From positions 2,068 through 66,067 of the forward strand of contig CAZKLT010000002.1 in the NCBI GenBank assembly GCA_964553825.1: 64,000 nucleotides of DNA, in the 5' to 3' direction. Source of the stretch: an uncultured Gammaproteobacteria bacterium. GTDB lineage: Bacteria; Patescibacteriota; Microgenomatia; UBA10105; UBA927. Each line of letters begins with the position of its first letter. The stretch's first letter is position 1. The notes beneath the pieces were generated by a model. That model was given only the letters and a program-made list of their open reading frames with translations. It ran no database searches and was not told the origin of the DNA. Below, piece after piece: positions 1 to 56,393 of this stretch. The translations under genes and the position numbers were made by a program.

Positions 1-868
1 CCAGAAGGGCATCTGCCAGGCTGTTGCGCCCTGCCTCTGTGATGATTTCTTCCTCCGTGAATCGCCCGGTAATAGCCCGGCCCTGATTTCGCAGGTCGGT
101 GGCAATCACCGATTGAATCATCTGCGCTGGTGAACCGAAATCGCACAGCGCCTTCGCATTCGCCTGCGTGAGGTCATACTGGAATTCCACGTCCACATCG
201 TACGCCATCTTCACACCCGTGCCGCTGAGAATGGCATTAGTGATACTGGTCTCACACGCCGCAGACTGGCACGCAGGGTCCCCGGGATTAGGATTGGATT
301 CCAATACCGCGCGGTCAAGCGTGCGGTACCGTTGGGTTCCCGTGGGATACAGACGTGTCATATCCATCGGGAGCGCGTATACGCCGGGCTTGAGCAGGCG
401 GAATTCCTGATGGGCTTCATCGTAATTGCAATACAGACCCATGTAACCGCCTGGCACATTGGCGGCAACGTGCCCCTGTCCATCGGGACCCATATCCACG
501 AATTTCTGTGGAATGGTGCGATAGAGTCCCGGACCCAGAATTTCGTAGTCCGTCGAGCCATCGGCATTGTATTTCTTGACGAAAATGCCGATGCGGCCCG
601 CGGGGATGTTTGCCGCCGCCATCACCTCGATGGTGAAATTCTTGGTCTCATCCGCGTCATCGGCTTTCCACTGGGCAATGCTGTCACCCGCATATTTGTA
701 TTGCGAGTATTGTTGGGTGACGTCCATTGCCGCGGCGTCGTAGTTGGGATTCACGACACCGACGATTTGTCCGTTCGGAACGAAGTCCGGCGGCGCTTGA
801 GCACCGCATGACGTGACGAAAATCAACATCAGTAGAGCACCGAACACTTGCCAATTTCTTGTTTTCAT
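1..868 (-). CDS. SPFH/band-7-like lipoprotein, N-terminal part (gene continues beyond window start)
   Basis: ATG at 868-866 preceded by a GAGGT RBS. Signal peptide with lipobox (LIFVTSC). The reading frame stays open to position 1. Segment IQSVIATDLRNQGRAITGRFTEEEIITEAGRNSLADAL resembles the SPFH/band-7 core. This ORF is not in the supplied track because it runs off the window edge. Confidence 0.5.
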   Translation of the reverse strand, partial: MKTRNWQVFGALLMLIFVTSCGAQAPPDFVPNGQIVGVVNPNYDAAAMDVTQQYSQYKYAGDSIAQWKADDADETKNFTIEVMAAANIPAGRIGIFVKKYNADGSTDYEILGPGLYRTIPQKFVDMGPDGQGHVAANVPGGYMGLYCNYDEAHQEFRLLKPGVYALPMDMTRLYPTGTQRYRTLDRAVLESNPNPGDPACQSAACETSITNAILSGTGVKMAYDVDVEFQYDLTQANAKALCDFGSPAQMIQSVIATDLRNQGRAITGRFTEEEIITEAGRNSLADALL

Positions 869-1068
869 ACTATTTACCTCATCTTGGATTTCTTGTGTCA
901 CTGTTTCGGCTGACCGGGCCTACGTGTGGTGTGACGGTGGGTTGGGTTTTGTTGGTCTGGTATTTTCCTTTTCTCTTTTGGTTTTGAACTATTGGACTGC
1001 TGACAGGGCCAGAAAAAATAGCATTCTGTTCCTGTTTCGCAGCCCAAAACAACCGCCAACATTCCTTT

Positions 1069-1388
1069 CTCTTGAACTTGTTAACGTGCATCAGGAATGC
1101 ACGAACACACTCCCCGAGTATGGGAAGCGGTCATGCTCTCTTGATTCCTTTTTGTCTTTCTGCAAATTCGTCCTTTCGGACTCATCAGTACGGACACACA
1201 TCCGTAGTTTGCAGAGGAAAGGATACGGGTGGCTCAGGTGACGTCGGGTTCAATCGACATACATATACACTGAACGACCAGCATCCTCAGGGCCATACTG
1301 GCACCTGCATCGCCTGTCTCACGACGGCAATGTCCCCCGGAGGACCTTACGTGCATCCTCGAACTATTCACGTTCAAGAGTAGTTCCA
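1069..1388. repeat. 320-bp direct repeat, copy 1 (MITE-like or structured 3-prime-UTR element). Termini form a 9-bp inverted repeat: ctcttgaac ... gttcaagag.
   Basis: Base-for-base identical to 2853-3172, which I checked line by line. It begins 15 nt after the stop of the TPM gene on the minus strand. The terminal inverted repeats extend imperfectly to about 35 bp (ctcttgaac..ggaatgcacg / cgtgcatcc..gttcaagag). Confidence 0.9.
1158..1216 (-). ncRNA. hammerhead-ribozyme-like motif (type III topology), copy 1
   Basis: Minus-strand RNA: UCUGCAAA-C-UACGGA(UGUGUG)UCCGUA-CUGAUGA-GUCC(GAAA)GGAC-GAA-UUUGCAGA. All conserved core nucleotides CUGAUGA and GAA are present. Stem I is 6 bp, stem II is 4 bp with a GAAA tetraloop, and stem III is 8 bp. 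C17 sits at position 1207. Non-canonical: the 15.1-16.1 pair is U-A instead of A-U. Confidence 0.4.
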
Positions 1389-1402
1389 TAAAGCACAGGG
1401 GC

Positions 1403-2695
1403 TTATTTACGCGCGCGTTTGAAGAGGTTCACCGCTGGACGATCTTCGATTTTCGCGTCACGCAATTCGGCTAGCTGTGCCTTGAGGGTTTTGATGTCGG
1501 TGAGGATACCCGCTTCGGGACCGATATCATCGGCTTTGGTATACCGTAGTGTCACGGTCAGCGGTTTTCCTTCGAGCAGGCGGGATTGGGCTTGCAGATC
1601 GCGGACATCAGGATCCGTATCAGCCTCCGCCTGGGTGAAGCCCATCATCGGGTCGAGGAGTTCAGCAATTTCTGCCTCGGTCATTTCCAGCACGTTCTTG
1701 CTCGTGCCAATGAGTTTGAGGTAGATGACTTCCCACTGCTCTACTTTTTCCCGATAGGACAACGTGCGCACGCCTTCCTTCTCGTTGTCGAGGAGCATCT
1801 TCCTGTTGCCCATCACGAGTTCGATTTTGCGCATGGTTCTGCGGATCGCTTCGACAGCCGCCGTTTCGATGTCCGAATATTCCTGAAGACCGTTGGCCTT
1901 CATACGGCTGTAAAGGAGCGTTCCCTCAGGTTCGTCGCCGGCTAAGACCAAATTTGCCTGGCGGACGATTTCCCCGGTGCGGTCAGTGAGCACCTTGAGG
2001 TAGTTGAGTTCAGCGATGACTGGGACTCCGAATCGCAGGAACAGCCAACCTAAACCCACAAGGATTGCCAGCACGGCAAACCCGGCGAAGAAATTCCGTA
2101 CAGGCTTCATGTCCACGGGTGGACGCGGCGTTGCCGTAGGCTGGGATGTCGGCATGGCGAATTGCTGATTTGCGTTCGGATACGCCACGCGATATGCCTC
2201 GGCGAGCGCGATGACAATGCTCTCAGTAGCCTCATTGCTTGCCACGCCGTCGAGCACTAACTGCTTCACCGTCTCATCGGCAAGATGAATCGGCGTTGCT
2301 GAACCGAGCGTGCCGCCAACATCAAGCGTAACGGTCATTTCTCCGTCCACGATACCCACCGAGAGGAAGTAGCCGCTTTGGTGCAGCTCCATCTGCTCAA
2401 CGTTATCAATGGTCTGCGGAAACCGTGCCTGAGAGGCAATTTGCACCGCATCAATCCGGGCGTACCATTCATCCTCTGAGCTATATCGCTCATCGGATAG
2501 AAACAGGCCAACCTTGACCCCTTTGAGCGCAAGCGGCTTCATAGCCTCACACACTTGCTGCACATTGAGGGAATTGGTCTCATCCACGATGATGCCGTTA
2601 TCGCAACTGGCTTGCGCGTGAGCATTCGTGGGGACGACAGACGCTGTGATGACGAACATCAATACAAGCGTCAACAAACGACGAATAGCGTTCAT
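1403..2695 (-). CDS. membrane protein with an extracytoplasmic TPM-like (phosphatase-fold) domain, one TM helix and a cytoplasmic coiled domain
   Basis: 430 aa. AGGAGA RBS 8 nt upstream of the ATG at 2695. Signal peptide. Segment IIVDETNSLN...KVGLFLSDE...GYFLSVGIVDGEMTVTLDVGGTL fits the TPM pattern. TM helix FFAGFAVLAILVGLGWLFL. Confidence 0.5.
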   Translation of the reverse strand: MNAIRRLLTLVLMFVITASVVPTNAHAQASCDNGIIVDETNSLNVQQVCEAMKPLALKGVKVGLFLSDERYSSEDEWYARIDAVQIASQARFPQTIDNVEQMELHQSGYFLSVGIVDGEMTVTLDVGGTLGSATPIHLADETVKQLVLDGVASNEATESIVIALAEAYRVAYPNANQQFAMPTSQPTATPRPPVDMKPVRNFFAGFAVLAILVGLGWLFLRFGVPVIAELNYLKVLTDRTGEIVRQANLVLAGDEPEGTLLYSRMKANGLQEYSDIETAAVEAIRRTMRKIELVMGNRKMLLDNEKEGVRTLSYREKVEQWEVIYLKLIGTSKNVLEMTEAEIAELLDPMMGFTQAEADTDPDVRDLQAQSRLLEGKPLTVTLRYTKADDIGPEAGILTDIKTLKAQLAELRDAKIEDRPAVNLFKRARK

Positions 2696-2852
2696 GGGGA
2701 TTCATCTCCTGGGTAGTATTTTGGATAATTCCAGCGGTGGTCTCGGCATACCGAGTTTGCTCATCCCTCTTCTGACAAAATGGGACGATACGAAGATACA
2801 CAAGAAATGCTCTATCTTCATATCGTCCCACATCATCAGTCAATTATTTCTA

Positions 2853-3172
2853 CTCTTGAACTTGTTAACGTGCATCAGGAATGCACGAACACACTCCCCG
2901 AGTATGGGAAGCGGTCATGCTCTCTTGATTCCTTTTTGTCTTTCTGCAAATTCGTCCTTTCGGACTCATCAGTACGGACACACATCCGTAGTTTGCAGAG
3001 GAAAGGATACGGGTGGCTCAGGTGACGTCGGGTTCAATCGACATACATATACACTGAACGACCAGCATCCTCAGGGCCATACTGGCACCTGCATCGCCTG
3101 TCTCACGACGGCAATGTCCCCCGGAGGACCTTACGTGCATCCTCGAACTATTCACGTTCAAGAGTAGTTCCA
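2853..3172. repeat. 320-bp direct repeat, copy 2
   Basis: Identical to 1069-1388 with an offset of 1784 bp. It begins 15 nt after the pspA stop codon on the minus strand. It occupies the pspA-to-TPM intergenic region. Confidence 0.9.
2942..3000 (-). ncRNA. hammerhead-ribozyme-like motif, copy 2
   Basis: Identical sequence to copy 1 (offset 1784). The putative cleavage site C17 is at 2991. Confidence 0.4.
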
Positions 3173-3187
3173 ATGCAAATCTGCCTG

Positions 3188-3874
3188 CTATGCGCCCTTC
3201 TTGAGGGAGGCTTTCAGGGCGATGATATCGGCGCGCGCCTTTGCCACGGCATCGGTATTTCCCATGGCGTCGGAGATGGAGCCGACCACGCGCTTGTGGC
3301 GCTGATGTGCACGGCGATTCTTTTCCAGAATCTTCCCGCCGTAATCATCGAGCCCCTTGGTCTTACCAACCACTGCCTGAGCACCTTCCATGGCATCGGT
3401 GGACGCTTCGACCGCCTTGGTATCTTCCTTGGCTTCTTCGAGTTCCTTCACGCGCGCCACACCCTGCTCATACAGCATGGTGAGGAATTTGATGCATTCA
3501 TCATTGTCCGCGAACTCCGCTTCCTTGGCGGCGAGTCTCTCTTCGCGTTTCTTGATTTCTTCATCAAGTGCGTTGAATTGAACGCGGAGGAGCTCCGCAT
3601 CCTTGTCGTTGTTCTCGTCGTCGTCCAGCAGGAGAGCCTTCACATCACGGTCGAGCGCCGTTCTCTGCGGGCGGGCGGTCTTGAGGTATTTCCTCAGGTC
3701 GCCGATTGCAACGGTCACCGCATCCTGCACATTGTACATGCGCTCGCGCGCGCGATACAGGTCACGGACGCGCTGTTTGAGGACGGGGATGTCGAAAATT
3801 TCCATTAGAGCATCCATGCCCTCATTGAGGATGCCGAGCGAGAGCAGACGTGCCTTTTGGGCTGTTGTATCCAT
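3188..3874 (-). CDS. pspA: PspA/IM30 (Vipp1/LiaH) family membrane-stress protein
   Basis: 228 aa. Long charged coiled-coil. N-terminal MDALMEIFDIPVLKQRVRDLYRARERM and overall charge periodicity are typical of PspA. Confidence 0.6.
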   Translation of the reverse strand: MDTTAQKARLLSLGILNEGMDALMEIFDIPVLKQRVRDLYRARERMYNVQDAVTVAIGDLRKYLKTARPQRTALDRDVKALLLDDDENNDKDAELLRVQFNALDEEIKKREERLAAKEAEFADNDECIKFLTMLYEQGVARVKELEEAKEDTKAVEASTDAMEGAQAVVGKTKGLDDYGGKILEKNRRAHQRHKRVVGSISDAMGNTDAVAKARADIIALKASLKKGA

Positions 3875-4140: not shown

Positions 4141-4190
4141 CTGGAGGATTGTAGCATTTTTTTAGGGAACAGTCAAAAACTATGGGGTAT
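4141..4190 (-). promoter_or_regulatory. sigma70-like promoter for pspA: TTGACT, 17-nt spacer, TACAAT, with a shared upstream motif TAATACCCCATAG
   Basis: The minus strand reads TTAATACCCCATAGTTTTTGACT gttccctaaaaaaatgc TACAAT. The leader to the pspA ATG is about 260 nt. Confidence 0.5.
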
Positions 4191-5319: not shown

Positions 5320-6600
5320 CTACTTTATGGCTGATACAATCCGCTCGATGGCTACTACAAACGCGGCAGTGCGCATGTCCGTCTTGTATCGCTTCGATGC
5401 ATCCCACACGTCGCTTGCTGCCTTGTTCATCTTTTCTTTGAGTCTGGCGTTCACATCATCTTTTGTCCACCGTTCCCCCTTGAGGTTTTGTTCCCACTCA
5501 AAGCAGGAGACCGTCACGCCACCGGAATTAGCAAGAATATCGGGTATCACCACGACACCCTTCTTATATAATGTAGCGTCAGCTTCAGGCGTCGTGGGGC
5601 CATTTGCCATTTCCAGGACGATTTTTGCCTGTATGCTCTTGGCGTTTTCCGCAGTCAGTACGTTTTCCAGGGCGGAGGGCACAAGAATATCGACAGGAAG
5701 CTCAAGAAGCGCTTCGTTTGATATTTGTCTCCCCTGCTTCACATCGCATACGGTGCCTGAGCAGTAGCATCCGGCAAGCATGCCCGTTTTCTTCTTGCAT
5801 TGGAGTGTCGTCACGGGATCCAAACCGTCAGGCACCAACACGCCACCACGGCTGTCTGAAACGGCTATTACTTTTACACCTGCTTCAACCAAAAATTTTG
5901 CCACATTAAATCCCACATTCCCGAACCCCTGAACGGCGGCGGTAAGACCGTCCTTTTTTCCTAACTTCGCCAAAATCGCCTGAAGCACAAACAATCCGCC
6001 TTTTCCTGTTGCTTCTTCGCGCCCCTCGCTCCCGCCATCTGTGAGTAGTTTCCCCGTAAACGTCGCCCTGAGCGTTTCGTCGGCCGGCATTCCCTTCTCC
6101 TTCTGAACAGCCATAAACTCATCGACCATCCATCCCATGATGGTGCCATTGGTATTTACGTCCGGCGCGGGCACATCTTTTTGCGGCCCGATATGGTCGG
6201 CAATCGCCCGGACATACCCTCGCGATAGTCGTTCAAGCTCACCCTCGGAAAGTGTTTTGGGATCCACAACAACGCCACCCTTCCCCCCGCCGAGCGGTAA
6301 ATCCGCAACGGCGCATTTCATCGCCATCCAGAAGGCAAGTGCCTTAACCTCATCCATGGATACCTGCTGGTGAAACCGGATGCCGCCTTTATACGGTCCC
6401 CGTGCATTATTGTATTGCACCCGGTATCCTTGAAATGTCTTGGTTGTCCCATCGTCCATGACGACGGGTATTTCCACATTGAGTATCCGCTGAGGCTCCT
6501 GCAGCTTAGCTACATCCGCCTGAATGGAAGGATCAGGCAGAAGTGCCGCTGCACGCTTGAGCTGGGTCAGTGCGCTTTCAAATGGATTTGCTGGTTGCAT
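5320..6600 (-). CDS. gdhA: NAD(P)-specific glutamate dehydrogenase
   Basis: 426 aa. KGGIRFH ... GGGKGG motifs. GGAGG RBS. Confidence 0.9.
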   Translation of the reverse strand: MQPANPFESALTQLKRAAALLPDPSIQADVAKLQEPQRILNVEIPVVMDDGTTKTFQGYRVQYNNARGPYKGGIRFHQQVSMDEVKALAFWMAMKCAVADLPLGGGKGGVVVDPKTLSEGELERLSRGYVRAIADHIGPQKDVPAPDVNTNGTIMGWMVDEFMAVQKEKGMPADETLRATFTGKLLTDGGSEGREEATGKGGLFVLQAILAKLGKKDGLTAAVQGFGNVGFNVAKFLVEAGVKVIAVSDSRGGVLVPDGLDPVTTLQCKKKTGMLAGCYCSGTVCDVKQGRQISNEALLELPVDILVPSALENVLTAENAKSIQAKIVLEMANGPTTPEADATLYKKGVVVIPDILANSGGVTVSCFEWEQNLKGERWTKDDVNARLKEKMNKAASDVWDASKRYKTDMRTAAFVVAIERIVSAIK

Positions 6601-6751
6601 AAACTGCCTCCTTTTTTGACTTATCTGAGCCTATCGTGCTTTCTCGTATCTTTGCTTGACAAAACGAGGACATAAAATCCCACACGCTGAAACTCGCGGT
6701 TTTCGCGTTCTTGATATAACACTAGTCGCACATACGGGGTAAAACCACGCG

Positions 6752-48451: not shown

Positions 48452-48587
48452 AGGCGGGTGAGGCAGGCTTTGAACCTGCGTTCTTGGTTTTGGAGACCAA
48501 GGTCCTTCCAACTGAACGACTCACCCAAAAGGAAGAGAAGGATACGATGCAGTGTGAACCTGACGGCTCAAGTGATTCTCTCTTCCA

Positions 48588-48666
48588 TGGAGGCGGCGAG
48601 GTAGGACTTGAACCTACTCCCTCCGGCTTTGGGTACCGGCGCTCATCCTAATGAGCCATCTCGCCC
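48588..48666 (-). tRNA. tRNA-like gene, probable anticodon CCA (Trp), with irregular acceptor/T-stem register and C33
   Basis: Minus strand: GGCGAGA-UG-GCUC(AUUAGGAU)GAGC-G-CCGGU(ACCCAAA)GCCGG-AGGGA-GUAGG(UUCAAGU)CCUAC-CUCGCCGCCUCCA. Clear D, anticodon and T arms. The acceptor pairing is off by one. Confidence 0.5.
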
Positions 48667-48684
48667 TGTCCCCTTTTCTCTTGC

Positions 48685-49017
48685 TTACTCAGGTTCCTTG
48701 CCTGATCCTCCACATCTCGGACATGGATCTGCATCATATTCTGATGCCCACGCACCGCGTGCAGGTACAAAACCGGAGCCCAAACAGCGTTTGCAGCGGC
48801 CATGCCCAAACAGAGCGAATATACCGCTCACACTGACACCGACGATGATTAAAAATACCGGAAGAAGAACCACAAATCCTCCCGGTCCAAACCGATCAAG
48901 CACAAACGCCACCGCCGGCTGCGCATGGAATACGAAAACAAACGCACCGACAATGCCCAATACGGAAAAGATGTACCACACTCTTTTCCAAAACGGATTT
49001 TTTTTCTGACTTTTCAT
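48685..49017 (-). CDS. membrane protein with a C-terminal zinc ribbon
   Basis: AAGGAGAGA RBS before ATG 49017. Two TM helices. C-terminal CxRC...CPRCGG. Confidence 0.55.
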   Translation of the reverse strand: MKSQKKNPFWKRVWYIFSVLGIVGAFVFVFHAQPAVAFVLDRFGPGGFVVLLPVFLIIVGVSVSGIFALFGHGRCKRCLGSGFVPARGAWASEYDADPCPRCGGSGKEPE

Positions 49018-49456
49018 CACGTCTCTCCTTGTTTCAGGTTTCACCATTCATTTCCCCTCTTTCCAGCTCCGCAAAACGGAACTCGAGAGAGGGGAAATCG
49101 CATCCTTCTCTTGTTAATGTGCCGGCTTCTTGTGTTGACCCGCAAATAGGCCACCAAAAAGCCCCTGTACGCTTCCCAGACGTGGGAACCATACAGGGGC
49201 CTTCATCAGGCGGTACCACCCCGCACTATCTTCTCTTCGGTACTAAAAATCCCCTTCCGGGGAGTACGTTGTACCAACGAGAAAATCTCATTCGTGACAT
49301 ACTCCGCTTTCGCGACATATGTTGACAGACTTTTTACGGTTTCGCCTCCGTACCCGATTAAGGTCAGCGCCTAAAAGTTTGACATCTCTCTTAGGAAGTG
49401 GGCTCCATCCTCGCTCCACATCGCCAGTATTCACTTATCTATGAGTATACCATCCC

Positions 49457-50062
49457 ATGCACCATGGTTGCAAATCCGTCTGCTACAATGGATATATGCC
49501 TCAGGAAACACTCAGAAACATTCTGCTTCTGGAGCTTATCTATATAACGGGATTCTGGATCCTCACCACCAGCCCGAAGGGCAACCTCAAAGGTTTTTTC
49601 GCTGCAATAAAAGACAAACGCTCAGGCCTCCCGGTACTCGTGTTTGAGCTTCTCTGTTTTGTTCAGGTTCTGTTTTTTTCCAGCCCACAATTTTCCTTAG
49701 GGAGATTCGACTGGTTTATGGGGGTTGCCGGGCTATGTATCTCACTGTATGGCGCGGGGCTTGCTTCCTGGGCAAAATGGACCATGGGAACCAACTGGGG
49801 CAGACCAGCCCAGCACGACAGGAAAATTCAGAAACAGCTTGTCACCGACGGCCCGTTTGCGTTTTCCCGAAATCCTATTTATGTGGGCTTGTTGTTTCTC
49901 TTTATCGGCCTGGAATTTGCTCTTCAAAGTTATGGCTTTATTCTCGCTATTCCCCTCTTTCTGGCGATACGCAAAGCCGTTATGACGGAAGAAGCGCTCC
50001 TGCTCACCTACTTCGGAAAATCCTACGCCCGGTATAAAAAGCGGGTTCCCCGATTTTTCTAG
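49457..50062 (+). CDS. isoprenylcysteine carboxyl methyltransferase (ICMT/PEMT) family membrane methyltransferase
   Basis: RNPIYVG motif. 4-5 TM helices. Alternative start at 49496. Confidence 0.7.
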   Translation: MHHGCKSVCYNGYMPQETLRNILLLELIYITGFWILTTSPKGNLKGFFAAIKDKRSGLPVLVFELLCFVQVLFFSSPQFSLGRFDWFMGVAGLCISLYGAGLASWAKWTMGTNWGRPAQHDRKIQKQLVTDGPFAFSRNPIYVGLLFLFIGLEFALQSYGFILAIPLFLAIRKAVMTEEALLLTYFGKSYARYKKRVPRFF

Positions 50063-50124
50063 CTAGTAGGTTAGGATGTGTATCCGTGACTGGACGAGAT
50101 TAGTCGATACTTTCAACTGTGTTT

Positions 50125-50631
50125 TCATTTGCACCTGATAGAGCTTATTTCCTTTATCGAGCGCAATGGCCTTTGACGTAAGCAGGATTGGCCCGGAGGA
50201 GTCGGGGTGACCTCGGAAAACCATACCGGGTGCTTATCTGTGGCATTGTAGAGCCTCACCCATACCCTCTGGCTCCCCGCTGGCACCGTGACCGTGGCTT
50301 CAAATGTCGCCTGCTTCATGCGTCCGTATGACGCCGTGTCCACGTAGGCGCTTGCCCCTGCCACATCAACCCAGTCATCGGAGGCATTTGTTCCCGATCC
50401 GAGTGGTACATAATACTCTTTTGCCGACCCGCTCACTGTTTTCCCCGCTACCTGATTCATCTTTGCGATACATGCCGAGGGACATGCCTCACTTGTTGTC
50501 CCCAGCACGGAACCACCTGCAAAAAACTGATGAATGAGATAGAGGTCAACGACCACTGCATTGAGAACTAAAACACCGACAAGCCACGGAAGAGGCGTAA
50601 AAAAATGGCGAGTGGCATTACGAAACTTCAT
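50125..50631 (-). CDS. hypothetical secreted/membrane-anchored protein
   Basis: N-terminal TM/signal segment. No recognised domain. Confidence 0.45.
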   Translation of the reverse strand: MKFRNATRHFFTPLPWLVGVLVLNAVVVDLYLIHQFFAGGSVLGTTSEACPSACIAKMNQVAGKTVSGSAKEYYVPLGSGTNASDDWVDVAGASAYVDTASYGRMKQATFEATVTVPAGSQRVWVRLYNATDKHPVWFSEVTPTPPGQSCLRQRPLRSIKEISSIRCK

Positions 50632-50671
50632 ACTTTCTCCAGTGTAGAAACTACCCCACTGGAGGTCAACT

Positions 50672-50744
50672 TGGTTGCGGGGCCGGGAATCGCACCCGGT
50701 CTAGAAGATTATGAGCCTTCTGTGCGGCTTTACACTACCCCGCG
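50672..50744 (-). tRNA. tRNA with anticodon CAU and a C1-A72 mismatch (initiator-like), non-canonical D and T loops
   Basis: CGCGGGG-UA-GUGU(AAAGCC)GCAC-A-GAAGG(CUCAUAA)UCUUC-UAGA-CCGGG(UGCGAUU)CCCGG-CCCCGCA-A-CCA. 73 nt, CCA encoded. The D loop lacks GG. The T loop has UGCG instead of UUCG. Confidence 0.55.
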
Positions 50745-50847
50745 GTTCATAAAGAACGAATTTCATTATAGCGTGTTTGGCGCTCAAATCAAAGCTGCCC
50801 TTTGCTCTTCCTTCCAACTGGACTATACTTACTCAAGAACTTCTTGT

Positions 50848-52545
50848 ATGAAAAAGTACTGGCACCTTGTCATATTGGGCATTATCTTTTGTGTTGCCCT
50901 GTTTCTCCGACTTTGGCACCTTCCTCAAATTCCCGTCGGGCTCCATGGTGATGAAGCAAGTATCGGCTACAACGCATACTCACTGTTAAAAACCGGCCGT
51001 GATCAAAACGGTATCCGGTACCCTCTTGCTATTGACCAATTCGGCGACTTTCGACCTGCGGGATACCACTATCTTGATATTCCATTCGTAAAACTCTTCG
51101 GACTCAACGCGCTTGCGGTTCGACTTCCGTCTGCGATTCTTGGTGCCGCGTCTGTGGTGCTTTTTTACTTTCTCACCTCCGCGATCTTCGGCAAAAAACC
51201 GGTCGGTCTGATTGCGGCTTTTTTTCTGACCATTTCCCCGTGGCACATAAACATTTCCCGGGCCACCAGTGAGGGGGTTATCGCAGGCTTCTTCATTCTT
51301 TTGGGAATCCTTTTGGTGTTTCATGCACTGACCCGGCCAGGTCGAACGTCTCACCTGCTTATCGGAGGCTTCCTCTCGCTGTTTGTCAGCATCCTGTTCT
51401 ACCACAGTGCGCGTCTGTTCGTGCCTGTTTTTCTCATACCGTTTCTCGGAATCATGTTCCTGGCTTACAAACCGCCGGTGAAACGAAGCATCGGGGCCGT
51501 CATGCTTCTCGTTCTCTTCATCGCCGCACTCGCCGGAGTTATGAAGTCAAGCCAGGGAGCAGCGCGACCCAGCACGGTGAGCATCTTCAATATCCCGGGT
51601 GGTGATCGCGAAATTTTCCAGCAAATCGGTGAAGATGGAACACGGCCTGCCACCATAACACGAATACTGCATAACAAAGCACTCTTTTACGGCAGGTTAT
51701 TTCTTGCGTCGTATTTCTGGCATTTCAACGGTGAATTTCTTTTTAATTCAACGGGCATGCCCATACGATATAAGATCCCATGGAGCGCCAATATGTACCT
51801 CACAGACCTCCCGCTTTTGCTTCTGGGCGCTGCTGCACTTCTTCTGGACGGATTACGGAAACGGAAATACCTGCTCCTCATCCCGCTGGCGTGGCTGACG
51901 ATTGGCGCCCTTCCTGCGGGGCTGACATGGGAAGATCTCCCCAATGTGCAACGGGCTAGTCTTATGATTCCGGCGCTCCTGATGATTTCAGCGTATGGAC
52001 TGTTTGAGCTCCTTGCCGTATTTACCCAGAAAACGCTTCAGAAGCTGATCCTGCTGGGATATGGCGCATTTCTTACCTACGGATTTATTCTTTTTTACCA
52101 CAATTACTTCTACCATCTCCCCCGTCATGAACCGTGGCACAGAAGCGCCGCCGTGCCGCAACTACTCTCCCGGATAGCAGACCTTAAGAAAACGCACGGT
52201 AATGCTCCCGTTATCATGACCACCGAAAGCAACAATAACTTCATCTTCTACCTTTTCTATACGGCATTTGACCCGGCCACATTCCAGGCGATGGGATCAC
52301 CCACAGAGAAAGATAATATGCTTTTTGACGGCATCCAATACACGGTCAGACCATGTCCATTGGGAAACAATTCAGAAGCACCGGATGAAGAAGAAGACAA
52401 TATAGGCATCCTTTTCGTCAATAAAGCAACCTGCAAAACTCCGGTTAATGTTGATGTGTTGGAGACGATACGGTGGACCGATGGTGTCCCCGCCTTTCTT
52501 ATTGTGAAGGTAAACCCCCTGTGGGTAGCGCCGAAGACAAAATAA
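50848..52545 (+). CDS. GT39/GT83-like (ArnT/PMT family) membrane glycosyltransferase
   Basis: ATG 50848 (MKKYWHLVIL). More than 10 TM helices. Conserved HGDEA motif. The upstream part of the supplied ORF overlaps the tRNA and looks spurious. Confidence 0.65.
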   Translation: MKKYWHLVILGIIFCVALFLRLWHLPQIPVGLHGDEASIGYNAYSLLKTGRDQNGIRYPLAIDQFGDFRPAGYHYLDIPFVKLFGLNALAVRLPSAILGAASVVLFYFLTSAIFGKKPVGLIAAFFLTISPWHINISRATSEGVIAGFFILLGILLVFHALTRPGRTSHLLIGGFLSLFVSILFYHSARLFVPVFLIPFLGIMFLAYKPPVKRSIGAVMLLVLFIAALAGVMKSSQGAARPSTVSIFNIPGGDREIFQQIGEDGTRPATITRILHNKALFYGRLFLASYFWHFNGEFLFNSTGMPIRYKIPWSANMYLTDLPLLLLGAAALLLDGLRKRKYLLLIPLAWLTIGALPAGLTWEDLPNVQRASLMIPALLMISAYGLFELLAVFTQKTLQKLILLGYGAFLTYGFILFYHNYFYHLPRHEPWHRSAAVPQLLSRIADLKKTHGNAPVIMTTESNNNFIFYLFYTAFDPATFQAMGSPTEKDNMLFDGIQYTVRPCPLGNNSEAPDEEEDNIGILFVNKATCKTPVNVDVLETIRWTDGVPAFLIVKVNPLWVAPKTK

Positions 52546-52550
52546 GTGGG

Positions 52551-52623
52551 TGCCAGCGGCAGGGATCGAACCTGCGACCTATGCCTTATGAAGACACCGC
52601 TACTACCACTGAGCTACGCTGGC
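52551..52623 (-). tRNA. tRNA-Met (CAU), elongator-type
   Basis: GCCAGCG-UA-GCUC(AGUGGUAG)UAGC-G-GUGUC(UUCAUAA)GGCAU-AGGUC-GCAGG(UUCGAUC)CCUGC-CGCUGGC-A. Perfect 7-bp acceptor stem. G1-C72. Confidence 0.85.
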
Positions 52624-53990: not shown

Positions 53991-54161
53991 CGCGTTTGCA
54001 ATAATAGGTGAAAAGCGACTGAGTTTGGCCAGTCACCAAACGAGCTATCTGCCGAACCGCAGTAAGCAGATCGGGTAAGCCCGTAACAGCACTCGAGAAG
54101 CAAATAAGGTGGTACCACGAACACCCGTTCGTCCTTATAATGAAGGAGAGCGGGATTTTTT

Positions 54162-56393
54162 ATGGAAAAAAACTACGATCCAAAGCAGGTAGAAGACCGC
54201 ATTTACGCCATGTGGCAACAGGGCGGCTATTTTGTGCCCACCGATAATCCGAAGGCAAAGCCCTTCACTATTATCATGCCTCCTCCCAACGCCAACGACC
54301 CGCTCCACATTGGTCATGCCATGTTTGTCGCCTTAGAAGACATTATGATCCGCTACCGGCGAATGGCAGGCTTCGCCAGCCTCTGGGTTCCGGGAACGGA
54401 CCACGCAGGTATAGAAACCCAGTTCGTGTTTGAAAAAAAGCTGAAAAAAGACGGAAAAAGCCGGTTTGATTTTGACCGGGAAACATTATTCGCCAATATC
54501 TGGCAGTACGTAAAACAAAACTCAGATATGGCCGTTTCACAACTGAAACGGATTGGGGCATCTGCCGATTGGAGCCGCTTTAAATTCACCCTTGATCCGG
54601 ATATCGTCGACGTCGTGTTAACCACATTTCGCAAACTGCATGAAGACGGACTTCTCTATCGGGACAACCGCCTCGTTAACTACTGCACCCGCTGCGGCAC
54701 GGGATACTCAGAGCTTGAGGCGAACCACGAGGTGAAAAGGGATCCATTTGTCACCATAAAATACGGCGACTTTACCATAGGCACGGTGCGCCCGGAAACC
54801 AAATTCCGGGATACCGCCCTTGCCGTAAACCCTAAGGACAAACGGTATAAAAAATTTATCGGCCAAAGCTTTGACATAATGGGACTCTTGGGGCCTATAA
54901 AGATGACGGTGATAGCAGATCCCGAGGTGGATCCGGCATTCGGCACCGGCATGATGAAAGTAACGCCCGCCCATGATTTTCATGATTTCGAGCTGGGTAA
55001 AAAACATAATCTTCCCGTCACTCCCATTATCGATCTCAAAGGAAAAATGGACTTTTCCTGGTATATACAGAGTCCTGACTTTGCAACCAAACCGCAAAAA
55101 TACCAGGATCGCGCAAAAACGTATCATGGCTTGCATGTGTCAAAAGCCCGGCCGCTTATGATAGACCATCTCAAAGCAGACGGATTGCTTGTGGATATCA
55201 ACGAAAATTACGAACACACGGTGGCCACCTGCTATCGCTGCGGCTCCACCCTTGAGCCGCTTCCACTCCCCCAGTTTTATATCAAGGTTGAAGCGCTGAC
55301 AAAACCGGTACTTCAAGCGCTCAAAACCAAAAAGGTGAAGATTCTCGGTCCCGGATACGACAAGATACTCAAAAACTGGCTTACCAACCTCAAAGACTGG
55401 AACATCAGCCGCCAGATCGTCTGGGGGATACGGATTCCCGTGTGGTATTCCCTGGAAGAAAACCCCAACCTGCAAATACGGTATGTGGACTCGCAGGGAC
55501 AGCAGATCGTGAGAAACGGGAACGATATTCTTGCGTCTGGTGATCTTGAGGAGGCAAAAAAGGGTCTTCAACAGCTGCAGGCGCCCATCGGCTCAACGTT
55601 TGTCATAAGCACTACTGCCCCTGGTCCCAACTATCTCCAGGAAACGGATACGTTTGACACCTGGTTTTCTTCAGCCCAATGGCCATTTGCCACGCTTAAA
55701 ACCGCAAAAAAGGGAGACTTTGACCGCTTCTACCCTACGCAGGTTATGGAGACGGCGTACGACATTCTTATCTTTTGGGTCATGCGCATGCTAATGATGG
55801 GTATATATGTCACGGGTAAACCGCCATTTGATACCGTCTACCTTCATGGCCTCGTGCGGGATGATAAGGGGCAAAAAATGAGCAAATCGAAGGGTAACGT
55901 TATTAACCCGATAGAAATAATTGACAAATATGGGGCAGATGCGCTGCGTATGGCGCTCGTTATGAGCACCACCGCAGGCCGTGATTCAAATACCAGCGAA
56001 GAAAAAATCCGCGGCATGCGTAACTTCACCAACAAAATCTGGAACGCCGCGCGGTTTATCCGCCTCAAGGAAAATCAAAATGCAAAAATAGGCGAGCTGG
56101 ACGAACCGTTTATCAAACACCTCCATGCCACATCAAAAACTATCACCAAGTATTTAACCGCCCAAAAAATCGGCCTTGCAGCCGAGTGTGTATATCAGGA
56201 ATTTTGGCATTGGTTTTGCGATGAAGCCATCGAACAAAACAAGGAAGGTAAAATCTCCGATGCGGCGCTCAACGAAGGATTCATAACGTTTTTAAAGCTC
56301 CTTCATCCATTTGTGCCATTTATCACTGAGGAAGTTTGGAGATCGATACATCCCGACAGGACGCCGCTAGTTGTCAGCCCATGGCCGTCATGA
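54162..56393 (+). CDS. valS: valine--tRNA ligase (compact form lacking the C-terminal coiled-coil)
   Basis: PPPNANDPLHIGHA and KMSKS motifs. 743 aa. Confidence 0.75.
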   Translation: MEKNYDPKQVEDRIYAMWQQGGYFVPTDNPKAKPFTIIMPPPNANDPLHIGHAMFVALEDIMIRYRRMAGFASLWVPGTDHAGIETQFVFEKKLKKDGKSRFDFDRETLFANIWQYVKQNSDMAVSQLKRIGASADWSRFKFTLDPDIVDVVLTTFRKLHEDGLLYRDNRLVNYCTRCGTGYSELEANHEVKRDPFVTIKYGDFTIGTVRPETKFRDTALAVNPKDKRYKKFIGQSFDIMGLLGPIKMTVIADPEVDPAFGTGMMKVTPAHDFHDFELGKKHNLPVTPIIDLKGKMDFSWYIQSPDFATKPQKYQDRAKTYHGLHVSKARPLMIDHLKADGLLVDINENYEHTVATCYRCGSTLEPLPLPQFYIKVEALTKPVLQALKTKKVKILGPGYDKILKNWLTNLKDWNISRQIVWGIRIPVWYSLEENPNLQIRYVDSQGQQIVRNGNDILASGDLEEAKKGLQQLQAPIGSTFVISTTAPGPNYLQETDTFDTWFSSAQWPFATLKTAKKGDFDRFYPTQVMETAYDILIFWVMRMLMMGIYVTGKPPFDTVYLHGLVRDDKGQKMSKSKGNVINPIEIIDKYGADALRMALVMSTTAGRDSNTSEEKIRGMRNFTNKIWNAARFIRLKENQNAKIGELDEPFIKHLHATSKTITKYLTAQKIGLAAECVYQEFWHWFCDEAIEQNKEGKISDAALNEGFITFLKLLHPFVPFITEEVWRSIHPDRTPLVVSPWPS

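Follow-up and report, generated by a model that had tools for sequence, protein, structure and literature searches.

Bacterial hammerhead ribozymes have been described in clusters that flank genes, where they cleave polycistronic RNAs both in vitro and in vivo, and where circular or spliced products were sought and none found (Perreault et al. 2011, PMC3088659). The most conserved pair of the hammerhead class is A15.1-U16.1, and its flip gave low activity; U15.1-A16.1 is already part of the published consensus as a rare tolerated core variant, with one sequence described, and a natural hammerhead of this kind self-cleaves, less efficiently than typical ones, which Perreault et al. attribute to the lost contact between A15.1 and G5 (PMC3088659). 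With regard to the cleavage site, NAH triplets are cleavable, and tertiary-stabilizing loops raise activity on a UAA site (PMC3923133). Plant retrozymes have LTRs of ~350 bp with a type III hammerhead, according to the part of a 2019 review that draws on Cervera et al. 2016 (PMC6765202); their defining features further include 4-bp target-site duplications, a PBS behind the 5' repeat, a polypurine tract ahead of the 3' repeat, a center that does not code for protein, dispersed mobile copies and circular RNA intermediates. The same review holds that more work is needed to define the purpose of bacterial hammerheads.

Here we describe a 64-kb stretch of DNA (hereafter the window), in which two identical 320-nt direct repeats each carry a hammerhead with the flipped pair, on the strand of three co-directional genes (Table 1). 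In both copies the minus-strand (mRNA) RNA reads UCUGCAAA-C-UACGGAUGUGUGUCCGUA-CUGAUGA-GUCCGAAAGGAC-GAA-UUUGCAGA, in which the conserved core (C3-U4-G5-A6-N7-G8-A9 and G12-A13-A14) is present as CUGAUGA and GAA, the G10.1-C11.1 pair closes stem II (GUCC/GGAC), and C17 falls at 1207 and 2991, a spacing of 1784 nt. The 15.1-16.1 pair is U-A in both copies instead of A-U, which keeps Watson-Crick pairing and is the sole core deviation, and neither copy offers a register that restores A15.1-U16.1. An earlier note on this DNA had proposed a type III hammerhead with C17, G10.1-C11.1 and a GAAA-capped stem II, one copy per repeat on the mRNA strand, with the swapped pair as the only core deviation and cleavage sites at 1207 and 2991; the RNA reads as it described, with C17 at the two positions it named as predicted cleavage sites, and the motif is one base narrower on each side than the spans it gave (1158-1216 and 2942-3000).

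Table 1. Features of the hammerhead locus, in window coordinates.
Feature	Position	Strand	Basis or remark
Structured intergenic module copy 1, exact 320-nt repeat	1069..1388	-	Repeat extent, fold z = -5.3
Structured intergenic module copy 2, at 100% identity with copy 1	2853..3172	-	
Module copy 1 closing helix, CUCUUGAAC with GUUCAAGAG	1380-1372 with 1077-1069	-	Present in MFE
Module copy 2 closing helix strands	3164-3156 and 2861-2853	-	
Hammerhead copy 1, type III, U15.1-A16.1	1159..1215	-	Sequence, Rfam, fold
Copy 1 stem III	1215-1208 with 1166-1159	-	8 bp
Copy 1 stem I hairpin	1206-1189	-	
Copy 1 core CUGAUGA	1188-1182	-	
Copy 1 stem II/GAAA	1181-1170	-	
Copy 1 core GAA	1169-1167	-	
Hammerhead copy 2, same sequence as copy 1	2943..2999	-	Sequence, Rfam, model R1
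Predicted scissile bond copy 1, 3' of C1207	1206..1207	-	Inferred from hammerhead numbering
Predicted scissile bond copy 2, 3' of C2991	2990..2991	-	Inferred; between 228-aa and 430-aa genes
First cistron, 228-aa all-helical coiled-coil protein	3188..3874	-	ORF
Middle cistron, 430-aa protein, between the two ribozymes	1403..2695	-	ORF
Third cistron, lipoprotein-like ORF (MKTRNWQVFGALLMLIFVTSC...)	1..868	-	Start 868, runs off window start
Sigma-70-like promoter candidate TTGACT-17-TACAAT with TG	4148..4176	-	Upstream of first cistron; consensus match only

The Rfam search that the note had called for matched both copies with Hammerhead_3 (RF00008) over model positions 1-54 of 54, at 42.7 bits (E = 6e-6 for the whole 64-kb window), below the curated gathering cut-off of 48.5, and copy 1 scores 79.1 bits with a custom covariance model (R1). 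The core descriptor CTGATGAG-N8-16-CGAA has two sites in the 64-kb window, both of them the hammerheads, with 0.07 expected by chance. For a 76-nt region the minimum-free-energy (MFE) fold is a three-way junction (z = -3.7), and in both this fold and the full-length Rfam alignment stems I and II are loop-closed and stem III is open. The hammerhead has the common bacterial/phage architecture, in which stem I measures 6-7 bp and ends in a UGUGUR-type loop, stem II (GUCC/GGAC) has 4 bp and an NAAA loop, and stem III spans 4-8 bp; among canonical type III hammerheads from viral contigs (n = 47), the 18-nt stem I hairpin is present in 36 and U16.1 in all 47, with loop 1 of the UGUGUG/UGAGUG type and an NAAA loop 2. 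Both sites are genuine, evolutionarily conserved type III hammerhead motifs.

Each hammerhead lies in the middle of its module, with four to five hairpins in the half on its 5' side and a long one on its 3' side, and the MFE fold of module copy 1 includes the long-range closing helix. The consensus fold across lineages reveals compensatory as well as G-U changes in the internal hairpins and the terminal helix, and the 320-nt repeat folds as a closed, covarying RNA domain. In the single-sequence MFE fold, the outer half of stem III competes with an upstream CGGGGG/CCUCUG pairing. The repeat ends carry exact 9-bp terminal inverted repeats (CTCTTGAAC...GTTCAAGAG). The module copies are identical inside each genome, an identity that is due to gene conversion or assembly, not to independent conservation. 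Two copies only, at one locus, are present in the window and likewise in the MAG L015; a genome scan with the 5' box of the module (TGGAACTACTCTTGAACG) recovered this one real genome and one chance match (L016), and metagenome assemblies break at the repeats. Other readings of the repeat were discarded. A sigma-54 promoter in the 5' box (TGGAAC-N5-TTGA) is out because the -12 GC is absent and because the box pairs in RNA helices that show compensatory changes. Integron attC sites are out by inspection, as the repeat ends do not fit RYYYAAC/GTTRRRY and the unit is 320 nt long and fixed at one locus. A small ORF in the repeat (1234-1389, 51 aa) is out, since lineage indels there are not multiples of three and the RNA covaries.

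The three cistrons lie in a housekeeping neighborhood (glutamate dehydrogenase, thioredoxin reductase, aminoacyl-tRNA synthetases, FtsH and similar). For the 228-aa protein AlphaFold2 gives a model with a pLDDT of 68.7, whose top Foldseek matches are Vipp1/PspA at E >= 0.01 (non-significant), so that a PspA/Vipp1-like hairpin is weakly suggested by the model. The 430-aa protein has a signal peptide, an extracytoplasmic alpha/beta domain, one transmembrane helix and a helical C-terminal region; its ORF is preceded by AGGAG (Shine-Dalgarno, SD) and is 74-79% identical between three lineages. Its homologues form only three clusters among 5.8 billion proteins, its exact sequence has no database record, and its AlphaFold2 model is of low confidence (pLDDT 46.8), with non-significant structural matches to 2kw7, 5anp and 4oa3, which we take to be TPM domains. 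The names 'pspA' and 'TPM protein', which had been given to these two genes earlier, find no backing in Pfam, where neither protein matches PspA_IM30 or TPM even at E <= 10, nor in a PDB sequence search, which returned nothing; what speaks for them are the weak, non-significant fold hints above. The ortholog of the lipoprotein-like ORF in L015 has 394 aa.

Identity of the hammerhead among the four related lineages is 92-98%, whereas the module around it reaches 60-73% in its 5' half and 72-80% in its 3' half. In lineage B, with 71-83% protein identity to the window, the hammerhead is the same at 57/57 nt (98.3% when one adjoining alignment-gap column is counted), and in lineage C it has two differences, i.e. 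a change from U-G to U-A in stem I beside loop 1 and a change in loop 2. Lineage D, which was found via the 228-aa protein and not via the ribozyme, and whose contig shows just this upstream gene, carries A15.1-U16.1 and U17 at the orthologous site; the U15.1-A16.1 flip is therefore compensatory, with the pair kept and nucleotide 17 still H. All 13 core nucleotides and H17 are invariant in the four lineages, including in orthologs found independently of the core search pattern. The changes in the orthologous hammerheads (A-U/U-A, C17 to U17, one loop 2 base, and U-G to U-A in stem I) are those that catalytic rules allow, and, judged by this pattern, the hammerhead is not a relic but is kept by selection. 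Apart from 15.1-16.1, the four orthologous lineages have no compensatory change in stems I-III, so support from covariation comes mainly from a wider family that was ascertained with U15.1 and stem II fixed. The locus holds the same position between the same neighbors in lineages A, B and C, all of which have their flanks assembled, and in lineage C the repeat-gene-repeat unit has 79% protein identity versus 41% and 33% for the flanks.

This wider family was collected with a metagenome scan that fixed only the core, stem II and U15.1, and that returned 31 loci with ~27 further distinct three-stem hammerheads carrying U15.1. A16.1 is present in 30/30 aligned members and position 17 is C in 28/30 and A in 2/30; the core CUGAUGA/GAA is invariant in these 30 members, in columns that the search pattern fixed. 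In stem I, 98% of cells are paired, with double changes in 6/7 pairs, and the three variable pairs of the inner stem III have 1/90 cells unpaired and three to four pair types each, giving a covariation score of 0.57 for the family, compared with 0.19 for shuffles and <=0.14 for slid controls. Though the search left both loops free, loop 1 (U-GUGU-R) and loop 2 (NAAA) stay conserved, and they match those of canonical phage hammerheads; a tertiary contact between the two loops, of the kind that supports fast cleavage, may form here. In L018, L027 and L028 the hammerheads have paralogous neighbors on the same contig that are canonical (type III) and share their architecture; together with phage hammerheads that have the same loop motifs, this indicates that the flip arises repeatedly within an active class. 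At least two same-strand hammerheads flanking genes of a co-directional block also occur in L018, L027, L028, L033 and L034, and most family members lie 9-110 nt from the flanking ORFs; no common gene partner emerged, as these ORFs are mostly without Pfam domains, mutually unrelated and not phage-like, with few PHROG matches. The exact flipped pattern has 0 matches in viral contigs, versus at least 120 for the canonical one, and a separate viral scan with AAAC-N16-20-CTGATGAG-N10-14-CGAATTT gave eight matches, all put down to chance because not one folds as a hammerhead. None of the >20 related metagenomic hammerheads reaches the Rfam cut-off, including the canonical A15.1-U16.1 one in L027, so the shortfall is not specific to the flip; with all members under the gathering cut-off, default Rfam annotation misses the whole U15.1-A16.1 group.

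Taken together, we consider it probable, at roughly 65%, that these are selected type III hammerheads with a flipped U-A pair that cut a tricistronic RNA into three mRNAs and thereby uncouple the cistrons. The ribozymes lie on the same strand as all three co-directional genes, there is one promoter candidate upstream, and no minus-strand promoter-like or terminator-like site was found inside the modules, from which we infer that the genes are probably co-transcribed. The ribozymes would then cut 3' of C2991 and C1207 in vivo, converting the tricistronic RNA into three monocistronic mRNAs. Upstream products would end in a 2',3'-cyclic phosphate behind a ~180-nt structured 3' tail, and downstream products would begin with a 5'-OH within the folded ribozyme, after which 295-338 nt of structured leader follow; upon the cut at C1207, for instance, the 430-aa mRNA would end in ...AAC>p and the lipoprotein mRNA would start with 5'-OH-UACGG. 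Such processing may uncouple the stability and translation of the three cistrons and in this way affect their expression. That the ribozymes would process the RNA, or at least uncouple pspA from the downstream cistrons, had been suggested before, and the present analysis supports a separation of the three cistrons as the likely effect, with cleavage as a prediction from sequence. That U15.1-A16.1 hammerheads should cleave, more slowly, is taken from the literature, to which the locus adds the motif, its conservation, the covariation and the compensatory flip. The "essential" A15.1-U16.1 pair thus tolerates a flip that selection maintains, as seen in ~30 natural sequences and in compensatory changes between orthologs and between paralogs, which suggests that the rate loss seen in vitro is tolerable in vivo. 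The locus is a clean case for the study of what bacterial hammerheads do, in a non-phage operon on a chromosome that is shared by at least four lineages, where the ribozyme is the best conserved intergenic segment and three separate mRNAs are the predicted consequence.

A hammerhead that is catalytically dead or very slow, and whose fold is kept as a non-catalytic part of the 320-nt RNA domain, is unlikely; in that role it might bind a protein, offer RNases an entry site or block them, or stabilize the mRNA, with host nucleases doing the processing, if any. It would account for the flip of the most conserved pair of the class, which gave low activity (PMC3088659), for the absence of stem covariation among the four orthologs, and for the position of the hammerhead inside a conserved structure far larger than itself, which covaries in its own right and whose closing helix spans the cleavage site. 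A purely structural three-way junction, however, needs neither the CUGAUGA/GAA core nor a non-G at 17, and yet the 13 core nucleotides and H17 are invariant in the four lineages and in the ~30 family members (selected by a pattern that included the core), whose stems vary freely; moreover, the only orthologous changes are those that the catalytic rules would allow, and a natural U-A variant cleaves (PMC3088659). The homologous copies, in which the earlier note had proposed to look for core conservation and compensatory changes, favor a functional ribozyme through the four lineages and the wider family, and its worry about an inactive relic is weakened by the occurrence of the flip in ~30 natural sequences with intact cores and by the cleavage of the natural U15.1-A16.1 hammerhead. 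A passenger role of the hammerhead in a DNA-level repeat, i.e. a 320-bp MITE-like or recombination-site element with 9-bp terminal inverted repeats, is extremely improbable. The exact inverted repeats, the identical copies within each genome, which suggest concerted evolution, and the discordance of cassette and flanks in lineage C would suit such an element, but each genome has two copies only, at orthologous sites and with no target-site duplication, the compensatory and G-U changes in internal hairpins and terminal helix are of the RNA type, and the hammerhead is the best-conserved segment, not a passenger.

The earlier note had also recognized the architecture of retrozymes, of which the ~320-nt hammerhead-bearing direct repeats stand, while target-site duplications (TSD), PBS, polypurine tract (PPT), a non-coding center and mobility do not. 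That the repeats excise a 1784-nt unit, which is circularized and possibly mobilized as a retrozyme- or viroid-like element, is very unlikely, and membership of the locus among retrozyme-like mobile elements is largely refuted. The resemblance of the repeats to the ~350 bp LTRs of plant retrozymes, as the cited part of PMC6765202 describes them, counts for this reading, as do the ability of the two ends of an excised RNA to re-form stem III and a 9-11 bp closing helix, the better conservation of the lineage C unit than of its flanks, and the breaking of metagenome assemblies at the repeats. Against it, the bases beyond the outer repeat ends differ, with no duplicated 4-mer; no PBS-like match to TGGTATCAGAGC with <=3 mismatches occurs in 900-3300; and the 14-nt interval from the stop codon of the 430-aa ORF (1403) to the 3' repeat (1388) has no purine run >=10, the nearest one upstream of the 3' repeat being at 1783, inside the 430-aa ORF. 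The center is a conserved, SD-preceded ORF and not non-coding, the site is syntenic in lineages A, B and C amid housekeeping genes, the one species-representative genome with the module has two copies of it, and clustered bacterial hammerheads gave no circular or spliced products (Perreault et al., PMC3088659). In a related proposal, which we regard as highly improbable as well, the 1784-nt RNA becomes a circular protein-coding mRNA, or the modules act as homology arms for cassette exchange between lineages. After both cuts, the middle RNA could carry the module 5' half at its 3' end and the ribozyme and 3' half at its 5' end, and stem III (8 bp) with the 9-11 bp closing helix could bring these ends together for ligation by hammerhead reversal or an RtcB-type ligase; if true, retrozyme and viroid circles would have a protein-coding equivalent in prokaryotes. 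Cassette exchange would explain the 79% versus 33-41% identities in lineage C.

Among described systems, the predicted processing ribozymes most directly recall the clusters of Perreault et al. (their Figure 3, PMC3088659), in which several ribozymes likewise surround single genes in a co-directional block, and the U15.1-A16.1 hammerhead of the same study (Figure 5/S6), which has the same core deviation in a natural sequence. Compared with that single sequence, the flip is found here in ~30 sequences, which may include the published one, and it is compensatory between orthologs (D versus A, B and C) and same-contig paralogs. Core, topology and architecture are those of bacterial and phage type III hammerheads (RF00008), from which the window differs in its U-A pair at 15.1-16.1 and in the placement of the ribozyme within a 320-nt structured module; unlike phage and prophage hammerheads, it has as its context a conserved chromosomal operon amid housekeeping genes. 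With plant retrozymes it shares two direct repeats of ~320-350 nt with a type III hammerhead around a unit of 1-2 kb, and the potential of the ends of an excised RNA to re-form the ribozyme, but it is without TSD, PBS and PPT, its center is protein-coding, and it is a single syntenic bacterial locus. RiboJ is a synthetic ribozyme insulator, a type III hammerhead plus hairpin upstream of a gene, which by cutting itself sheds the RNA context upstream and gives the downstream cistron a defined, structured leader with a 5'-OH. The element described here is like RiboJ in its predicted mode of action, and differs in being natural, in lying between the cistrons of an operon, and in having a long structured leader and tail.

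Each copy of an exact 320-nt direct repeat (offset 1784 nt) houses one hammerhead, and both read, on the minus strand, UCUGCAAA C UACGGAUGUGUGUCCGUA CUGAUGA GUCCGAAAGGAC GAA UUUGCAGA. The core departs from the consensus only at U15.1-A16.1, the flipped form of the usual A15.1-U16.1 pair. The Rfam model Hammerhead_3 (RF00008) aligned end to end with both copies at 42.7 bits (E-value 6e-6 for the whole window), below the gathering cut-off of 48.5 bits. A bare core descriptor found two sites in 64 kb, both of them these hammerheads (expected 0.07), and the three-way junction is the local minimum-free-energy (MFE) fold of the region (z = -3.7). Re-reading, the Rfam alignment and the fold confirmed what the earlier note had described, a hammerhead core on the minus strand in each repeat, with coordinates that were right to within one base. 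Judged by sequence, the pair are real hammerhead ribozymes, new members of the bacterial type III class that carry a known but rare core flip.

Features of the hammerhead locus in the window
Feature	Position	Strand	Description
Sigma-70-like promoter candidate	upstream of 228-aa gene		sequence match
228-aa helical protein	3874-3188	minus	first of three genes, followed by module copy 2
Module copy 2	2853-3172		exact 320-nt repeat
Hammerhead copy 2	2999-2943	minus	in module copy 2
430-aa signal-peptide/transmembrane protein	2695-1403	minus	between module copies 2 and 1
Module copy 1	1069-1388		exact 320-nt repeat
Hammerhead copy 1	1215-1159	minus	in module copy 1
Lipoprotein-like ORF	start 868, runs off window	minus	after module copy 1
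Stem III	both copies	minus	8 bp
C17	1207 and 2991	minus	hammerhead numbering
Stem I	both copies		closed; 6 bp + a U-G, GUGU loop
Core CUGAUGA	both copies	minus
Stem II	both copies		4 bp, closed by G10.1-C11.1, GAAA loop
G12-A13-A14	both copies	minus

Among 5.8 billion proteins, homologues of the 430-aa protein fall into only three clusters; the 228-aa protein likewise has three, and the contigs of these homologues define four lineages, with the window as lineage A. Lineage B (contigs L001 and L002) is syntenic with the window across seven genes (protein identity 71–83%), and its hammerheads are identical. Lineage C (L004-L006, and the MAG contig L015, recovered using the 5' box of the module) has both modules, and its hammerhead shows two differences: U-G has become U-A in stem I beside loop 1, and one position differs in loop 2. 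Lineage D (L048) was reached independently of the ribozyme, via a 59%-identical 228-aa protein; the orthologous module is present, the contig stopping inside stem III, and its hammerhead reads ...CUGCAAUU|UACGG...GAA AUUG, with A15.1-U16.1 and U17. A compensatory double substitution has therefore flipped the pair between orthologs, and position 17 remains within H (not G). The conservation that the earlier note had looked to as a test is present: besides this flip, between-lineage identity is 92–98% in the hammerhead, as against 60–73% in the 5' half and 72–80% in the 3' half of the module, which favours a functional ribozyme. In the 430-aa gene, lineages A, B and C resemble one another to about the same degree (74–79%), whereas the flanks of lineage C compared with A and B are only 39–41% (228-aa gene) and 33% (lipoprotein gene) identical; this discordance suggests exchange of the repeat-gene-repeat cassette between lineages, or flanks that evolve much faster. 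Between L015 278-4615 and window 1-3874, the 430-aa gene and two modules are 70–79% identical and the hammerhead itself 95%. In lineage B, identity to the window is uniform at 71–83%. Beyond the operon, L015 (5167-8000) has a tRNA gene and the first part of a 23S rRNA gene.

The flipped pair is found in a wider family. Scanning metagenomes with the pattern CTGATGAGTCCNNNNGGACGAAT, in which the core, the GUCC/GGAC stem II and U15.1 were the sole fixed elements, returned 31 loci, two of them chance matches and two secondary sites with a long loop 1 insertion; the remainder and the operon copies comprise 30 distinct three-stem type III hammerheads. Several features not imposed by the pattern recur, namely A16.1 (30/30), C (28) or A (2) and never G at position 17, an 18-nt stem I hairpin (28/30), a U-GUGU-R loop 1 and a loop 2 that is mostly AAAA. 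Stem I is 98% paired in the alignment, with double changes at six of its seven pairs, and in stem III the three inner pairs that vary have one unpaired cell in 90 and three to four pair types each. The covariation score was 0.57, versus 0.19 when columns were shuffled and no more than 0.14 when partners were slid, in a set whose ascertainment fixed stem II and 15.1 and with a shuffle control that is not a probability. R1, a covariance model built from the 30 sequences, located extra hammerheads in the same contigs: L018, L027 and L028 each have a canonical A15.1-U16.1 type III hammerhead 0.4–1.4 kb from the flipped one, clearly paralogous to it in L018 and L027. Because canonical and flipped paralogs share contigs, the flip is a recurrent event in an ordinary hammerhead lineage. 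L027 has a three-ribozyme cluster, in which a flipped and a canonical copy accompany a flipped-pair hammerhead (6577-6633) that also deviates at C7 and has a C10.1/A11.1 mismatch, and second hammerheads in L033 (4282-4375) and L034 (6999-7086) lie about 930 nt from the first, with a loop 1 insertion of about 32 nt and an ill-defined stem III. A scan of viral contigs yielded at least 120 loci for this pattern with A15.1 and none for it with U15.1; 47 clean canonical viral type III examples have loop motifs in common with the family, the 18-nt stem I hairpin in 36 and U16.1 in all. ORFs flanking the flipped family are mostly unannotated, mutually unrelated and not phage-like, and its contigs also bear tRNAs and a tmRNA. 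Flipped or canonical, hammerheads of this architecture (more than 20; L017-L044, 20 loci) all score below the Hammerhead_3 gathering cut-off, so default Rfam annotation would miss the group.

Alignment of the lineages and consensus folding place the ribozyme within a larger structure. The module contains a 5' hairpin (GAACUA/UAGUUC, with a compensatory A-U to G-C change in lineage D), three further hairpins with compensatory changes among lineages, the hammerhead and a long 3' hairpin. A long-range helix of 9–11 bp pairs the 5' box CUCUUGAAC with the 3' end GUUCAAGAG and encloses the whole unit across the ribozyme, with one U-A to U-G change among lineages. The single-sequence fold (-125 kcal/mol, z = -5.3) contains this closing helix in its MFE, and the entire 320-nt repeat is predicted to be a closed structured RNA domain; the hammerhead alone matched Rfam in the module. 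In the MFE an upstream CGGGGG/CCUCUG pairing competes with the outer half of stem III, and the centroid retains the hammerhead; such an alternative could modulate ribozyme folding. This pairing (window region 1216-1222 / 1330-1336, and the same in copy 2) joins an upstream G-rich segment to a partner that overlaps stem III and extends just 5' of it, and also appears in the consensus fold. The two copies are identical within each genome and 20–30% different between genomes, which points to concerted evolution, to which assembly could contribute. In one lineage B assembly, L001, the upstream copy has a strongly diverged 5' half and a one-base bulge in stem III, as if a gene-conversion tract had its boundary at the hammerhead's 5' edge. 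In that copy (L001 9540-9756) the diverged half keeps its hairpins via compensatory changes, stem III has a one-base deletion, and the sequence equals the other copy from the ribozyme onward. Independent metagenome assemblies (L003, L005 and L006, contigs of 1.5–1.7 kb, and the end of L001) break inside the module; such contigs of about one repeat unit are the assembly signature of a direct repeat in related genomes.

Nearby genes all lie on the minus strand, with glutamate dehydrogenase and thioredoxin reductase genes farther upstream of the operon, and a search of the minus strand within the modules found no promoter-like or terminator-like sites. The earlier note's names "pspA" and "TPM protein" lack Pfam support, even at E <= 10; the 228-aa structure model (pLDDT 68.7) has Vipp1/PspA as its best matches, none significant, and the 430-aa model is poor, with non-significant TPM-domain matches. 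The remainder of the window encodes aminoacyl-tRNA synthetases, FtsH, peptidyl-tRNA hydrolase, SMC, tRNAs and a T-box-like leader, and the window is bacterial chromosome, neither phage nor plasmid. The leader-like match (54009-54139, plus strand) scores 48.2 bits, far short of the 93-bit cut-off, and is closely followed by a 742-aa ORF (54162-56390). The window also contains a class I aminoacyl-tRNA synthetase domain, and four tRNA genes lie inside about 4 kb (48455-52623, minus strand).

The best-supported reading is self-cleavage of the operon transcript into three mRNAs. Co-transcriptional cleavage at the predicted sites, 3' of C2991 and C1207, would split a tricistronic RNA, leaving upstream products with a structured tail, about 180 nt long, that ends in a cyclic phosphate, and downstream products with a 5'-OH start inside the folded ribozyme, followed by a 295–338-nt leader. 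Both 5'-end-dependent and 3'-exonucleolytic decay would be expected to act differently on RNAs with these ends, and the three genes would therefore be uncoupled in their expression. The motif, its conservation and its covariation are observed; co-transcription, cleavage in vivo and the effect on expression are inferred.

A non-catalytic, structural role for the hammerhead fold is possible, though it leaves unexplained why the core bases and H17 are all fixed while the stems vary. A MITE-like DNA element is unlikely, given two copies per genome, both at orthologous sites, without target-site duplication (TSD) and with covariation of the RNA type. The earlier note's analogy with retrozymes (as defined in PMC6765202) fails, as there is no TSD and no PBS/PPT, the centre is coding, and there is no sign of mobility. 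An unlikely possibility is that the 1784-nt middle RNA circularises; stem III and the closing helix could hold its two ends side by side.

There are published precedents for the core variant, in a natural U15.1-A16.1 example, and for the arrangement, in gene-flanking clusters. Activity of the U-A variant is taken from the literature: Perreault et al. (PMC3088659), the only mention of U15.1 within the literature searched, reported a natural example that self-cleaves, less efficiently than typical hammerheads, and attributed this to loss of the A15.1-G5 contact. The NHH rule allows A at 16.1 if paired, and activity at a UAA site is rescued by tertiary-stabilising loops (summarised in PMC8495972, PMC3923133). 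New here are the locus itself, its non-phage operon context, the large module surrounding the ribozyme, and evidence that selection maintains the flip, itself a compensatory change. The locus supplies evidence from nature that inversion of the A15.1-U16.1 pair is possible, and, being conserved and outside phages, is a test case for what bacterial hammerheads do. It shares its gene-flanking arrangement with the bacterial clusters of Perreault et al. (PMC3088659), in which multiple hammerheads flank single genes or short gene blocks and cleave polycistronic RNAs of about 2 kb in vitro, and in one case in vivo, with circular or spliced products not detected.
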